Positions 1 to 12,352 of a stretch of 64,000 bases of DNA are shown here, in pieces. Numbering within the stretch: position 1 is the first letter of the stretch; every line of letters starts with the position of its first letter. The translations under genes were made by a program, and so were the position numbers. Below the pieces are notes generated by a model. The model was not told the DNA's origin and ran no database searches. It worked only from the letters and a program-made list of their open reading frames with translations. Origin of the DNA: an uncultured Gaiellaceae bacterium (GTDB taxonomy: Bacteria; Actinomycetota; Thermoleophilia; Gaiellales; Gaiellaceae); assembly GCA_963731615.1 (NCBI GenBank), contig CAVSWD010000005.1, positions 218,203-282,202 on the forward strand, in the 5' to 3' direction.

Positions 1-1578
1 CGAGCTCGTCGTCGACGCGACCGCGCGGATCGACGTGGCGGTTGCGCTGGGCAGCGTCTCGCGCGGCTGGCGCGGGACGGCCGTCGCCGTCTCGGAGGAG
101 GTGCAGCTCGTCGGTGCCACGGCATCCGTTGCTCGAGCCCGCGACCGCGGTCCCGATCGACCTCGAGCTAGGTGAGCTTCGCGCCCTCGTGATCAGCGGC
201 CCGAACACCGGCGGCAAGACGGTCGCCCTGAAGACGCTCGGGCTTGCCGCGCTCCTGCACCAGTCGGGCCTGAGGCCGCCTGCGGCGACGGCGGCACTGC
301 CGGTCTTCGACGAGGTGCTCGCAGACATCGGCGACCCGCAGTCGATCGAGATGAGCCTGTCGACCTTCTCGGGCCACGTCGCGAATCTCGTCTCGATCCT
401 CGCGTCGGCCCGCGAGCGCTCGCTGGTGCTCGTCGACGAGCTCGCCTCCGGCACCGACCCGGTCGAAGGCTCGGCGCTGGCGCAGGCCCTGCTCGCCCGG
501 CTTGCGCGAGCAGGCCCGGCTGACCGTTGTGACGACGCACTACCCGGAGCTGAAGGAGTGGGCGAGCGCGACCGACGGGGTCGCGAATGCGGCGACCGGG
601 TTCGACCCGGACACGCACGAGCCGCTCTACCGCATCGCGTTGGGGCGACCAGGTGTCTCGCACGCGCTCCGGATCGCGGAGCGGCTCGGGCTCGACGGAG
701 CCGTCGTCGCCGACGCCCGCGAGCGCGTCGCACCCGAGCGGCTCCGAATCGAGGAGCTCCTCGCAGAGGCCGAGGGAGCGGAGCGCGCCGCGACCGAGGA
801 GCGCGCCGCGGCTCGGCTCGAGCATGTCGCCGCCGCCGAGCTCGCCGAGCAGGCCCGCGAACGTGAGGCAGTGCTCGACGAAGCGATCGCGGCTGTCCGC
901 GCGTCGGCGGCAAGCGAGCGCGAACGCGCGGCCGCGGAGGCGTTCCGCGACCTCGCCGCGGCCCGTGAGGAGCTGGCAGCGCTGCGCGAGGAGATCCGTG
1001 TGGCTCGGCGGAAGGACCGCGAGTCGCGCCGGGCGACACCGGCCGCCGCCCGAGAGCGCGACCGTCGGCTCGGAGCGGCGGCGGAGCGGGCCGAGCTGGC
1101 GGAGAGCGCGATCAGGGCGCTCGACGAGCCGCTTACGCCTGCCGGGCCACTCGCCGCGGGGGATCCCGTCGAGGCGCCGTCCCTCGGCGTCCACGGCACG
1201 ATCGCCGCGATCGAGGGCGACGAGGCCGAGGTGGTGGGACCCGCCGGCCACCGGCTTCGAGTACCGCTCGCGCGCCTGCGGCCTTCTCGCATCCGCGAGC
1301 AGGAGCAGGAGGCACCCGTGCGCGTGATCGCCGCCGCCCGCGGCGACGTCGGCGACGAGCTCGACGTGCGTGGTCAACGAGCGCAGGAAGCGCGAGAGGC
1401 CGTACGGTCGTTCGTGGACGACGCGGCGCTCGCCGGCCTCCCGACGGTGCGGGTCGTTCACGGCCGCGGCACCGGGGCCGTCCGCGCGGCCGTCCGCGAG
1501 GAGCTGGACGGCCATCCGCTCGTCGAGCGTTGCGAGAGCGAGTCGGCCGACGGCGCGACCGTGGCGCATCTCGGCTAG
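1..1578 (+). CDS. mutS2: Endonuclease MutS2 (5' end cut by window edge; ABC ATPase + C-terminal Smr domain); reading frame interrupted near 118 and near 500
   Basis: RHPLL motif, Walker [26 protein letters not shown] and C-terminal Smr [13 protein letters not shown]. The pieces lie in frames 2, 3 and 1 and join at family-conserved positions. Confidence 0.85.
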
Positions 1579-2205
1579 GCGGGCTCCTCGACGACCTTCG
1601 CGGCGTAGAGCTGGTACGGAAGCGCCTCGAGGACGCGAAGCCGCGGCTCGGGCACGTCGAAGAAACGTCCAAGCGCGAGCGGTTCCAGCCACGCCAGGTC
1701 GGCGCGCGAGGCGAGCACGCGCCCGACCGCCGTGCGGTCGCCTCCGAGCGCGACGTGCTCAACACGCTCGCGCCACGGCCCGAGCACGCGCGCGGTTTCG
1801 GAGGCCGCGGCGTCGATCAGCCCGCGCTCCTGCTCGCCGCGCCGGCGCCGGAAGCGGTTCGCCGACGAGCCGCCCTTCTTGTGGCGGCCCTTGACGAACC
1901 GCGAGCCGACTTTCGAGGCGACGAAGCTGCTCGCCCTCGAACACGCCGACGGCGTACCCGCCCAGCCGGACGAGTAGGACGGCGACCCGCGGCTCCAGTT
2001 CGAGCGCTTCGAGCAGCGGCCCCGCGCGGACGACCTCGTACTCGCCCTCGTGGTCGAGCCCGAACGGCGGCGTGACGGTGAAGGCTCCGTCGTTCAGCTC
2101 GATCCGGGCGCTGCCGTCGCGGTAGACAGCTCGTCCTGCCGATCCATCGAGCGCACCGAGCCGCTTTGCCAGGTTCGCCCGGCCGATGTAGCGGGTGTCG
2201 CCCAC
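1575..2205 (-). CDS. acVLRF1 / Vms1-like (eRF1-fold) peptidyl-tRNA hydrolase family protein; frameshift near 1920
   Basis: Joined translation ...VLLVRLGGYAVGVFEGEQL|VASKVGSRFVKGRHKKGGSSANRFRRRRGEQ...HVALGGDRTAVGRVL...FFDVPEPRLRVLE matches the pattern I recall for actinobacterial VLRF1 proteins. GTG start near 2205. Confidence 0.6.
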
Positions 2206-2253
2206 GGTGACACGGTACGCAGAGCACGCCGCACCGCGAGTCGACCAGCCACA

Positions 2254-2706
2254 ATGAGCGCGATGAGCGCCGCCCTGCCCGCGAAAGTCGCCGTCGCCGC
2301 GATCCTGGTCGTGCTCGCCGCCGGCTGCGGCGGTGGGTCGAGCCGCGACGACTTTGTCGACGACGCGCTCGGGGTCTGCCGCACGTCGAACGAGCGCGTG
2401 AAGGCGCTCGGGACTCCCGATTCGTTCACGTCGACACAGCTGTACGGGCGGCAGGCGAAGGACGCCGTGGGCGACGAGATCGAGGAGCTCAGGAAGCTGA
2501 CCCCGCCCAAGGATCTGGAGTCGGCCTTCGCGGCCTATGTCGCCACCCTCGAGCAGCGACAACGGCAGCTCGATCTCCTCATCGACGCCGCCGACGAGAA
2601 CGACGGCGAGGCGATCCAGGACATCGGCACCGAGCTGGACGTCCTCACCGCGCGCGGGCGAGCGCAGGCGCGCCAGGCCGGAATCGCCGAGTGCGAGCAA
2701 GGGTAG
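2254..2706 (+). CDS. Lipoprotein, unknown function (paralog of 2945..3388)
   Basis: Lipobox LAAGC after a hydrophobic N-terminus; helical Glu/Leu-rich body; motif EIEELRKLTPP shared with the paralog. Confidence 0.7.
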   Translation: MSAMSAALPAKVAVAAILVVLAAGCGGGSSRDDFVDDALGVCRTSNERVKALGTPDSFTSTQLYGRQAKDAVGDEIEELRKLTPPKDLESAFAAYVATLEQRQRQLDLLIDAADENDGEAIQDIGTELDVLTARGRAQARQAGIAECEQG

Positions 2707-2715
2707 GCTGAGCTC

Positions 2716-2934
2716 ATGTCCGTCGAGATCCACTACTGCCCTGTCTGATCGGGGTACGACCGACGGGCCGCGAGTCTCGCGGCCGTGTTGAACGCGAGCG
2801 GCGTCGACGCGACGATCGCCGAGGGTGCGAAGAGCCAGTTCGACGTGCTCGCGGACGGGGAGCTCGTGTTCTCGAAGCAGGAGCAAGGACGCTTCCCCGA
2901 AGAGGACGAGATCGTCGCGCTCGTGCGCAGGTAG
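2716..2934 (+). CDS. Rdx/SelW-like thioredoxin-fold selenoprotein (72 aa) with in-frame TGA at 2746-2748 read as selenocysteine (CPVU motif)
   Basis: MSVEIHYCPV-TGA-SGYDRRAASLAAVL...SQFDVLADGELVFSKQEQGRFPEEDEIVALVRR. Family similarity (IEYCxxC...RA..LA..L ... G.FEV..DGELI.SK...GRFP) continues in frame past the TGA. Not in the ORF track because of the TGA. Confidence 0.7.
2766..2784 (+). promoter_or_regulatory. Candidate bacterial SECIS hairpin (GGCCGCGA-GUC-UCGCGGCC) 17 nt downstream of the in-frame UGA
   Basis: Perfect 8-bp inverted repeat read directly from the sequence. The apical loop contains GU, and spacing to the UGA is within the range described for bacterial SECIS elements. Confidence 0.5.
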
Positions 2935-2944
2935 CGTTTCGGCG

Positions 2945-3388
2945 ATGCGCCGTCTCTCATTGCTTCTCCTCGTTGCCCTGGCTGCCGCCTGCGGTGGCGG
3001 CGACGACGGCGACGAGGAGCTCTCGCGCGCGGAGTACACGCGACTCGCGAACGCGAGCTGCGTGGAGGCAGAGCAGAAGCTCGACTCTCTCGGCGGCTTC
3101 GCAGACTTCAAGGAGCTCGAGCGGGAGATGAAGACCGGGCACGACGCGGTCAAGCAATCGGCCGACGAGCTGCGCGCGCTGAAGCCGCCGGCGAAGCTCG
3201 TCGTGCGTCACAAGGAGCTCGTCAGCCTCACGGATGAAACGGCCGACCTCGCCCTGCTGATCGCGACGGCGGCCGGCGAGAACGATCAGGTCGCGATGCA
3301 GAAAGAGGCCGAGCGCGCCGAGAAGCTCACGTTGGCCGCGAACGACGTCGCGAAGAAGCTCGGCCTGCTGGAGTGCGTCGCGGGCTAG
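2945..3388 (+). CDS. Lipoprotein, unknown function (paralog of 2254..2706)
   Basis: MRRLSLLLLVALAAACGGG lipobox; ELRALKPP motif; C-terminal Cys as in the paralog. Confidence 0.7.
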   Translation: MRRLSLLLLVALAAACGGGDDGDEELSRAEYTRLANASCVEAEQKLDSLGGFADFKELEREMKTGHDAVKQSADELRALKPPAKLVVRHKELVSLTDETADLALLIATAAGENDQVAMQKEAERAEKLTLAANDVAKKLGLLECVAG

Positions 3389-10732: not shown

Positions 10733-12068
10733 ATGAAGTCCCTGCTCGCCGGTGGCCACATCGTCACGCTGGACGACGAGGGAACCGAGCACCAGAGTGG
10801 CTGGATCCTCGTCGAGGACGGCTTCGTGACCGAGGTCGGGGCCGGGGCTGAGCCGGAGGCGGACGAGCGCCAGTCGCTTGCGGGAGCCGTGGTCACACCA
10901 GGCCTCGTCAACACGCACCACCACCTCTACCAGACGCTCACGCGGGCCCGGGCGCAGCAGGCCACGCTCTTCGAGTGGCTCGTCGAGCTCTATCCGACGT
11001 GGGCGCAGATCGACGCCGAGGCCGAGTACGCCGCCGCGCGCACCGGGCTCGCGGAGCTGATGCTCTCGGGCTGCTCGACCGTCTTCGACCACCACTACGT
11101 CTTCCCGCGCGGGCGCTCGGGCTTCGTCGAGGCCGAGGTGCAAGCAGCCGGAGAGCTGGGCTGCCGGATCGTCGCCTCGCGCGGATCGATGGACCTGGGT
11201 GTCTCAGACGGCGGTCTCCCGCCCGACGAGCTCGTGGAAGAGATCGACGCCGTCCTTGCCGATACCGAGCGGCTAGTGGCCGAGCTGCATGAGCACGGGC
11301 CAGGCGCGCGCGTCCAGATCGCCGTCGCGCCCTGCTCCCCGTTCTCGGTCACCGGCCGGCTGATGACGGAGTCGGCCGAGCTTGCACGCCGGCTCGGCGT
11401 TCAGTTGCACACCCACCTGGCGGAGACCATGGAGGAGGAGGCGTACTGCCAGGAGCTCTACGGCTGCACGCCGGTCGAGTACCTGGACGGCCTCGGCTGG
11501 CTCGACGGCGACGTCTGGTGCGCGCATTGCGTCCATCTCTCCGACGCGGAGATCGGACGCTTCGCCGCGACCGGGACCGGCGTCGCCCACTGCCCGACGT
11601 CGAACCTGCAGGCTCGGCGCCGGCGTCGCGCCCGTGCAGGCGATGACGGCTGCGGGAGTGCGCGTTGGGCTCGGCGTCGACGGCTCGGCCTCGAACGAGC
11701 GCAGCGACATCTTCCACGAGGTCAAGCAGGCGCTGCTCGTCGCACGCGGGCGCGGCGGGCCGCAGGCGATGACGGCGCGCGAGGCGCTCCGGCTCGCGAC
11801 GCGAGGCGGGGCGGCGGTGCTCGGGCGGGACGACATCGGCGCGATCGCGCCCGGTCGGTGTGCCGACCTCGCCGTCTGGGCGACGGACGGGCTCGAGCTG
11901 GCCGGGGCCGCCGACCCGGTGGCGGGTCTCGTCTTCGCCGGCACCCACCGAGTCGACCGTCTCTACGTCGGCGGCGAGCTCGTCGTCCGCGGCGGCGCGC
12001 TCGTCCGCGCGGACGAACGAGAGATCGCGAGCACGCACCGCGCACAGGCCGTTAGATTCGCTCCGTGA
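10733..12068 (+). CDS. 8-oxoguanine deaminase-like amidohydrolase; frameshift near 11610
   Basis: NTHHHLYQTLTR, HTHLAET, ...CPTSNL|RLGAGVAPV...GVDGSASN. A single extra base (ctgc[a]ggctc) separates the two frames. Confidence 0.8.
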
Positions 12069-12352
12069 TCTCGCTTTCGACGCACGTCCTGGATACGGCG
12101 GCCGGAAGCCCCGCGGAAGGAGTGCTGATCGTCCTCTACCGCGGCGACATGTTCATGAAGGAGGCCCGCACGGACGACGACGGCCGCGCGACGCTGGGCG
12201 ACGGCCTCGATCCGGGGACGTACAGGCTCGTCTTCCACCCCGTCTCGCCGTTCTTCAAGCGCGTCGAGTTCGAGATCAGCCTCGCGGAGGGCCACTACCA
12301 CGTCCCGCTCCTCGTCTCCCCCTACGCGTGCGCGAGCTACCGCGGCAGCTGA
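12065..12352 (+). CDS. uraH: 5-hydroxyisourate hydrolase (transthyretin-like)
   Basis: STHVLD start motif and C-terminal YRGS signature. Confidence 0.9.
   Translation: MISLSTHVLDTAAGSPAEGVLIVLYRGDMFMKEARTDDDGRATLGDGLDPGTYRLVFHPVSPFFKRVEFEISLAEGHYHVPLLVSPYACASYRGS

Follow-up and report, generated by a model that had tools for sequence, protein, structure and literature searches.

A SelW-like gene with a conserved in-frame UGA, very probably read as selenocysteine, in a Gaiellaceae bacterium

Introduction

In Escherichia coli fdhF, whose selenocysteine (Sec) insertion sequence (SECIS) is the archetype of SelB-dependent UGA recoding, a hairpin lies directly after the UGA codon and presents a G and a U in its apical loop. 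A hairpin placed in the same way, right after a UGA, and likewise with a G and a U at its apex, is found in the gene described here, at positions 2716-2934 of a 64-kb stretch of DNA from an uncultured Gaiellaceae bacterium (assembly GCA_963731615.1, contig CAVSWD010000005.1; the whole stretch is called the window below). Unlike the fdhF element, to which it has no sequence similarity, this hairpin belongs to the gene of another protein, and its 8-bp stem is perfect, without a bulged U. Judged from the sequence and its relatives, the locus belongs to a Gaiellaceae-like actinobacterium and very probably encodes an Rdx-family (SelW/SelT/SelH) selenoprotein, with Sec specified by an in-frame UGA.

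Bacterial SelW-like selenoproteins with a CxxU motif have been known since the mid-2000s (Zhang and Gladyshev; PMC1794560). In organisms that use Sec, homologs of these proteins with Cys are very few or absent, and Actinobacteria are among the phyla rich in selenoproteins (PMC1794560). A 2026 review lists "SELENOW-like protein, PF10262, CxxU" as a high-confidence predicted family and holds that aerobic bacteria rarely retain selenoproteins (PMC13188914). The window gene resembles the described bacterial proteins (PF10262; PMC1794560, PMC13188914) in its Pfam and NCBIfam family, in having Sec as the second residue of CxxU, in carrying the SECIS within the coding region right after the UGA, and in the absence of Cys orthologs. 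It differs from them in its host, a member of Gaiellaceae/Thermoleophilia represented mostly by soil metagenome-assembled genomes (MAGs). Specific to its ortholog group are an apparent leaderless transcript, an invariant CPVU motif, and the hairpin GGCCGCGA-GUC-UCGCGGCC. On sequence grounds, the gene is a genuine new member of a known family.

The locus was first picked out by a model that saw only the letters of the window and their open reading frames (ORFs). This sequence-only reading called Sec-insertion machinery notable for the lineage, which is overstated, as the SelW-like family is long known and Actinobacteria are selenoprotein-rich (PMC1794560). The claim is weakened further by public annotation: NCBI names SelA and SelB in Gaiellaceae MAGs, and JGI labels genes of this kind as selenoproteins, many of the shortened entries discussed below being named 'predicted Rdx family selenoprotein'. 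A literature search found no paper on selenoproteins in Gaiellales, Thermoleophilia or Conexibacter.

Conservation of the in-frame TGA

Translation of 2716-2934 on the forward strand gives MSVEIHYCPV, an internal stop (the TGA at 2746-2748), and then SGYDRRAASLAAVLNASGVDATIAEGAKSQFDVLADGELVFSKQEQGRFPEEDEIVALVRR up to the terminal stop; past the TGA the protein thus reads SGYDRRAASLAAVLN...VRR. The sequence-only reading had placed an ORF with an in-frame TGA at just this position and had supposed that stop-to-stop calling would miss it. Both statements hold, the first by translation and the second by mechanical ORF calling, which reports 2785-2934 only, a piece of 49 residues. A product identical to this piece is present in the public protein collection (P0007).

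A scan of genomes, one per GTDB species, yielded 52 related loci, all in MAGs labelled Gaiellaceae, Gaiella sp., Thermoleophilia, Actinomycetes or Actinomycetota, except one labelled Alphaproteobacteria. Their proteins are 51-85% identical to that of the window, and the position of the start codon, ATG or GTG, is kept across the orthologous loci. The Sec codon is TGA in 52 of the 52 loci and a Cys codon in none; none of the 51 aligned sequences lacks the TGA, and 3 further loci, which are frameshifted, have it too. In the stretches on either side, V-E-I-H/F/L-Y-C-P-V leading up to the TGA and x-G-Y-D-R/E-R-A-A-S-L-A-A following it, the amino acids are kept and the synonymous sites vary, indicating purifying selection on the protein on both sides of the TGA. 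In our reading the in-frame TGA almost certainly encodes Sec.

Protein databases agree with the genomes. A search gave 515 homologs, and the reading at the Sec position was tallied for the best 120 (90%-identity clusters): 110 are pieces that follow the TGA (47-63 residues, starting mostly at M/V-L-N), nine have W, one has G, and none has Cys. An alignment with Cys-containing orthologs had been suggested when the locus was first noted; no Cys form turned up in the 52 loci or among these 120 proteins. Nor were there relatives in which the TGA is a genuine stop with nothing kept downstream, a finding that had been named as fatal to the idea.

Two smaller observations concern the same region. The codon directly before the UGA (2743-2745) is GTC in 47 of the 47 sequences that have Val there, and the other Val codons of the gene vary; the invariant GTC may reflect a context effect on Sec decoding or on termination. 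Three loci (L050, L052 and L055) have a single frameshift in the Rdx gene (at about 3000-3215), downstream of an intact TGA and hairpin, and these are probably indels of long-read assembly rather than signs of decay.

Family and fold of the product

Family searches were made with Cys substituted for the TGA in the query. The Pfam profile Rdx (PF10262) matches residues 3-71, across the TGA, with E 3.4e-13 and 50 bits against a cut-off of 22.6, and the part after the TGA matches the same profile by itself (E 4e-9). The similarity to Rdx on both sides of the TGA, proposed from the letters alone, is thereby confirmed. The NCBIfam model TIGR02174 "CXXU_selWTH" is also passed (46.2 bits, cut-off 34.2). 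The protein is not a member of a narrower equivalog, NF041051 SelTWH_Campy, for which it scores 56.9 bits against a cut-off of 88. A profile built from 12 orthologs retrieves five solved Rdx proteins, namely MIEN1 (2LJK), 2P0G, SAV_2001 (3DEX), 2OKA and Atu0228 (2FA8), and in the profile alignment the TGA column coincides with the second Cys of CxxC in the solved Cys-type homologs.

An AlphaFold2 model was built on the ortholog P0001, which is 80% identical to the window protein and has W at the Sec position; its mean predicted local distance difference test (pLDDT) score is 95. The model has a strand (2-7), a helix (14-27), three further strands (31-36, 42-46 and 49-53) and two helices (54-57 and 63-70), and places C8-x-x-U11 in the loop that joins strand 1 and helix 1. 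In a fold search of the PDB with this model, the top 23 matches are all of the SelW family, with template modelling (TM) scores of 0.68-0.87 (solved SelW-related proteins reach 0.8-0.87), mouse SelW being the 23rd, and ordinary thioredoxins rank below them at a TM score of about 0.5. Profiles and model together show the predicted product to be an Rdx family member, as the sequence-only reading had surmised, with a thioredoxin-like beta-alpha-beta-beta-beta-alpha fold.

Among the solved proteins, the Cys-type Rdx structures (the Vibrio cholerae 'SelW-related protein' 2P0G, Atu0228 2FA8, 2OJL, 2OBK, 2OKA and SAV_2001 3DEX) share the fold, within the TM range just given, as well as the profile match and the placing of the redox motif in the same loop; they differ in having CxxC, in their length (about 100-107 residues compared with 72 here), and in sequence, the identity being 20-29%. 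MIEN1 (C17orf37) has the same family and thioredoxin-like fold and is the best PDB match by sequence (E 2e-7). Mammalian SelW (2NPB) shares the family, the fold and a CxxU at the same structural position. However, its SECIS is of the eukaryotic type, located in the 3' untranslated region and served by SBP2 and eEFSec, whereas the hairpin considered here is of the bacterial type and lies in the coding region.

The hairpin downstream of the UGA

The perfect 8-bp hairpin with GU in its loop, reported by the sequence-only reading at 2766-2784, is present as described (GGCCGCGA-GTC-TCGCGGCC in the DNA), and starts 17 nucleotides (nt) past the TGA. In isolation it has a minimum free energy (MFE) of -14.7 kcal/mol; none of 200 shuffles is as stable (z = -3.6), and the variants found in orthologs range from -8.2 to -13 kcal/mol. 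In its 61-nt context the folding energy is ordinary compared with shuffles (z = -0.6), and since such energies are not unusual for sequence of 70% G+C, the hairpin by itself is unconvincing. Rfam has no family that matches it.

Comparison among orthologs is more informative. In an alignment of 51 sequences, 50 of them distinct, the stem is paired in 97.8% of the cells (9 are unpaired), and sliding the 3' partner by 1-3 columns lowers pairing to 25-53%. RNAalifold predicts the identical helix. A compensatory change from C-G to U-A occurs at one pair in four sequences, and 14 changes involve G-U wobble. An extended lower stem, predicted in the window, is not kept in relatives and was rejected.

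The codons within the hairpin are constrained well beyond what the protein requires. For 4- to 6-fold degenerate codons, the codon entropy is 0.25 bits for the seven inside the hairpin and 1.02 bits for 18 comparable conserved codons elsewhere (Mann-Whitney p = 0.001). All 47 sequences with Ser at the loop use AGT, a codon that accounts for only 2% of Ser codons in the confident ORFs of the window, and the four sequences with Arg at this position all have CGT, so the GU of the loop is invariant. Where the protein does change, from Ala to Val in the 3' arm or from Ser-Leu to Arg-Val, pairing is retained through G-U and the loop GU is kept as well. As read from the codons, these results show selection on the hairpin at the RNA level, beyond that on coding. 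The suggested compatibility with a bacterial SECIS is borne out too: loop, stem, distance and energy all fall within the ranges of a published model (PMC13188914, Fig. 2 legend; Table 1).

Table 1. Positions of the gene, its signals and its neighbours in the window, with the SECIS model values set beside those of the hairpin
Feature	Coordinates	Strand	Details
Rdx/SelW-like selenoprotein coding sequence (predicted), 72 residues	2716-2934	+	ATG 2716; Sec codon 11; stop TAG 2932-2934
Redox motif Cys8-Pro-Val-Sec11 (TGC CCT GTC TGA)	2737-2748	+	Sec codon TGA 2746-2748
Putative SECIS hairpin, 8-bp stem GGCCGCGA/UCGCGGCC, loop GUC (2774-2776)	2766-2784	+	Encodes part of helix 1 (R-A-A-S-L-A-A)
SECIS apical loop			Required 3-9 nt; here GUC or A-GUC-U, fitting N1-G-[G/U]-N-N2
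SECIS upper stem			Required 4-16 bp; here 8 bp
SECIS loop G in first two positions			Present
SECIS UGA-to-loop distance			Required 16-37 nt; here 25 nt
SECIS MFE			Required <= -7.5 kcal/mol; here -14.7
Shortened 49-residue ORF, GTG start	2785-2934	+	Called in place of the full gene by ORF finders and in public annotation
-10-like hexamer TAGGCT (TANNNT)	2704-2709	+	Ends 6 nt 5' of the ATG; shares bases with the TAG that stops the upstream gene
Upstream hypothetical lipoprotein-like gene	2050-2706	+	True start probably further downstream; no Pfam match
Downstream hypothetical lipoprotein-like gene (MRRLSLLLLVALAAACGG...)	2945-3388	+	10 nt past the Rdx stop; no Pfam match

Sec machinery in the clade

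Genes for Sec insertion were sought in the wider clade by scanning metagenome contigs for the SelA motif SGDKLLGGPQ, back-translated into G+C-rich codons. The scan found 120 selA loci, many of them with an adjoining selB, and these were ranked by how closely their tetranucleotide composition resembles that of the window and of the Rdx loci. In the top-ranked locus, L079, which has selA-selB, the SelA is 81-82% identical to relatives (HEY8630174.1, HEX9599577.1) that NCBI names Gaiellaceae bacterium SelA, and SelB relatives at 73-74% identity are likewise named Gaiellaceae bacterium SelB. In two long MAG contigs, L179 (GCA_037024555.1, 331 kb) and L181 (ERZ25039464 contig_18831, 227 kb), selA is accompanied by selB, whose product shows the Pfam domains specific to SelB, and a tRNA-SeC follows 7-8 kb downstream; in L122, selA, selB and tRNA-SeC occur together. 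These loci show that selA, selB and selC exist in the Gaiellaceae-like clade, and the source genome of the window presumably has them too.

The sel loci vary in arrangement. The two genes selA and selB overlap directly in L179, L180 and L079, and in L181 an O-methyltransferase gene (Dimerisation + Methyltransf_2; 11315-12235) stands between them. A GTPase match near the Rdx gene in L036 was rejected as a SelB candidate, being a frameshifted EF-G/Tet(M)-like gene. At L025 1714-1808, ARAGORN calls a tRNA-Val(CAC) of 95 nt, which is unusually long and may be a false call or contain an insertion.

Evidence against and alternative explanations

Several results count against Sec insertion at this UGA. 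No selA, selB, selD or tRNA-Sec lies within the 64-kb window: ARAGORN and Rfam detect no tRNA there other than tRNA-Arg and tRNA-Phe, and tblastn with the SelA, SelB and SelD proteins of E. coli gives no match in the window or in the Rdx loci, a negative that is meaningful because the same probes strongly match the 120 metagenomic selA loci. None of the sel-bearing contigs could be matched to any Rdx-bearing contig, the Rdx gene is not inside the sel loci examined, and selD was not located in the clade. A scan of the window and of the flanks of the related loci for other in-frame TGA codons flanked by coding signal revealed no convincing second selenoprotein gene. The covariation of the hairpin is thin, with double changes at one pair only, in four sequences, because the element barely varies, and much of its conservation overlaps a helix that reads R-A-A-x-L-A even in Cys-type homologs. 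Finally, one copy (L058 577-801; JGI 3300078583, 1190 bp) has GGG at the Sec codon. It lies within a run of eight G (GTC GGG GGG GGC) and is the sole copy without the TGA in everything examined; it reflects either an error made in sequencing or assembly, or a CxxG variant that is rare and inactive.

Of the explanations that would do without Sec insertion, or without this SECIS, the one that fares best concerns the hairpin, which might be a by-product of the palindrome-like peptide A-A-S-L-A-A, or might serve some other RNA function, such as stability or attenuation. The presence of R-A-A-x-L-A in helix 1 of Cys-type Rdx homologs speaks for this, as do the confinement of covariation to one pair and the 61-nt fold that is no better than shuffles. 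However, a peptide by-product does not account for synonymous sites that are near-invariant inside the hairpin and variable outside it, for the rare AGT codon in every sequence with Ser at the loop, or for amino acid changes that preserve both G-U pairing and the loop GU. With the agreement to the SECIS model in all its features added, we consider this explanation improbable.

Another explanation starts from the public annotation, in which the real product would be the 49-residue protein that begins at GTG 2785, with the upstream part forming an independent short ORF or an untranslated leader. Gene finders call it so, a GTG or ATG is common at that place, and 110 of the best 120 database entries begin there. 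But such a protein would be an Rdx fold without its strand 1, its redox motif and most of its helix 1, and the peptide encoded by the 23 codons upstream is conserved and matches the Rdx profile. The signals before the gene also point to the longer product. A TANNNT hexamer lies 6-8 nt 5' of the ATG or GTG in 49 of 50 orthologous loci, against a background expectation of about 0.3%, and no Shine-Dalgarno sequence is evident before the start codon. This arrangement of a -10 element and a start codon is typical of leaderless mRNAs in Actinobacteria, and the mRNA is probably leaderless, beginning at or next to ATG 2716. A scan for promoters of the E. coli sigma-70 type and for terminators, which used the E. 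coli consensus, found nothing here. The TANNNT spacing fixes the start codon at 2716, since the hexamer is placed to serve the ATG there and not the GTG at 2785, and a 49-residue product is very improbable.

The TGA might instead be read as Trp or Gly, through an alternative genetic code or near-cognate read-through, to give CPVW or CPVG. Ten of the best 120 database entries do show W or G, and in L058 the codon truly is GGG. The nine with W (P0001, P0003-P0006 and P0008-P0011) are public JGI entries. The one checked in the DNA, P0001 (L057 10001-10219), has TGA at the Sec codon and was translated under code 4, in which TGA is Trp, so that the entry reads even its own terminal TGA as W. The W readings are an annotation artefact, produced from a selenoprotein gene on short contigs. 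In the window itself TGA is an ordinary stop: the 39 confident ORFs, which are crude gene calls based on G+C at third codon positions (GC3), end with TAG in 22 cases, TGA in 14 and TAA in three. Since TGA ends 14 of these ORFs, and also terminates the Rdx genes of L002, L004 and L057 themselves, a genome-wide reassignment of TGA can be set aside. Trp or Gly would moreover destroy a redox motif that has Cys or Sec throughout the family, and would leave a conserved GU-loop hairpin at SECIS distance without a role; such a reading can hardly be credited. As a separate observation on the stop codons, TAG is the commonest in a window of 70% G+C, where TGA would usually be expected to predominate.

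The least credible explanation is a pseudogene, in which TGC has mutated to TGA and the gene is dead or makes only a 10-residue peptide: it would suit the lack of Sec machinery in the window and a stop-to-stop calling that takes the TGA as a stop, but it is effectively ruled out by the conservation of the protein, with synonymous variation, on both sides of a TGA found in all 52 loci of different species with no Cys form, the window copy itself having start, frame, hairpin and stop all intact.

Proposed mechanism and its meaning

We consider the following sequence of events very probable. The hexamer TAGGCT would drive leaderless transcription that starts at or beside the ATG. With the ribosome at UGA codon 11, the loop of the downstream hairpin would bind SelB-GTP-Sec-tRNASec, and Sec would be inserted in place of termination. 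The product would be a 72-residue protein of thioredoxin fold, with C8 and U11 in the loop that follows strand 1 and precedes helix 1, where the pair could cycle between the selenol/thiol and selenenylsulfide states, as expected of a thiol-type redox protein.

Gaiellaceae are an abundant soil lineage with one cultured relative, which is aerobic. A tentative reading, to which we give somewhat less than an even chance, is that the lineage keeps Sec decoding for a single, obligately Sec SelW-like protein that has no Cys alternative and is made from a leaderless mRNA. In such a message the UGA would be the 11th codon, and no more than about 50 nt would separate the SECIS from the 5' end. If true, the lineage would run contrary to the view that aerobes rarely retain selenoproteins (PMC13188914), and would show SelB-dependent recoding occurring naturally on an mRNA that has no leader.

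Apart from that reading, the locus indicates Sec use in Gaiellaceae and related Thermoleophilia, actinobacteria that are common in soil and represented mostly by MAGs. A Sec-only SelW-like protein appears to be kept across at least 52 species, which is of mild interest given the rarity of selenoproteins in aerobes. Nothing in what is known of Sec decoding or of the Rdx family is changed, and the value of the case is mainly as a correction of annotation, in that hundreds of public entries for this gene are systematically in error, being either shortened, to 48-52 residues, or translated in the wrong genetic code, with W at the Sec position.

Gene neighbourhood

The order of genes around the Rdx gene is conserved: MutS2, acVLRF1, in some cases an AidB-like acyl-CoA dehydrogenase, a hypothetical gene, Rdx, a second hypothetical gene, and enoyl-CoA hydratase. 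This context gives no pointer to a specific substrate, and the remainder of the window holds ordinary housekeeping genes. The upstream hypothetical gene keeps its position in L001 and L057, and the downstream one in L001, L002 and L057; the latter is probably co-transcribed with the Rdx gene. The two are paralogs (28% identity over 132 residues, E 3e-10). Each carries a lipobox-like sequence (...AACGG / CGGG), with a Cys conserved close to the N-terminus and the motif E-C-x-x-G in the C-terminal part. The arrangement with a paralog on either side recurs in L001 and L057, and in L002 one gene of 300 residues follows Rdx.

The AidB-like gene, which falls in the interval between acVLRF1 and the upstream hypothetical gene, is absent from the window (about 2093-2300) and present in relatives (L001 2950-4503, L004 3375-4922, L057 8004-9557). 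In the window, MutS2 (42-1578, forward strand) appears split over two frames, 42-866 with MutS domain V and 502-1578 with Smr. It is a single gene of 779-789 residues in L001 and L057, and is split in L004 also. The split in the window is probably an indel error of long-read assembly, or else a real frameshift. The acVLRF1 gene, of baeRF family 10 (an eRF1-like, Vms1-type release factor), lies at 1575-2093 on the reverse strand of the window and at L001 2279-2908, L004 2726-3355 and L057 7354-8001 in relatives; in all four loci it is convergent with MutS2 and overlaps the 3' end of that gene. MutS2 is a sensor of ribosome collisions in Bacillus subtilis, and the pair of MutS2 and acVLRF1 may form a ribosome-rescue module.

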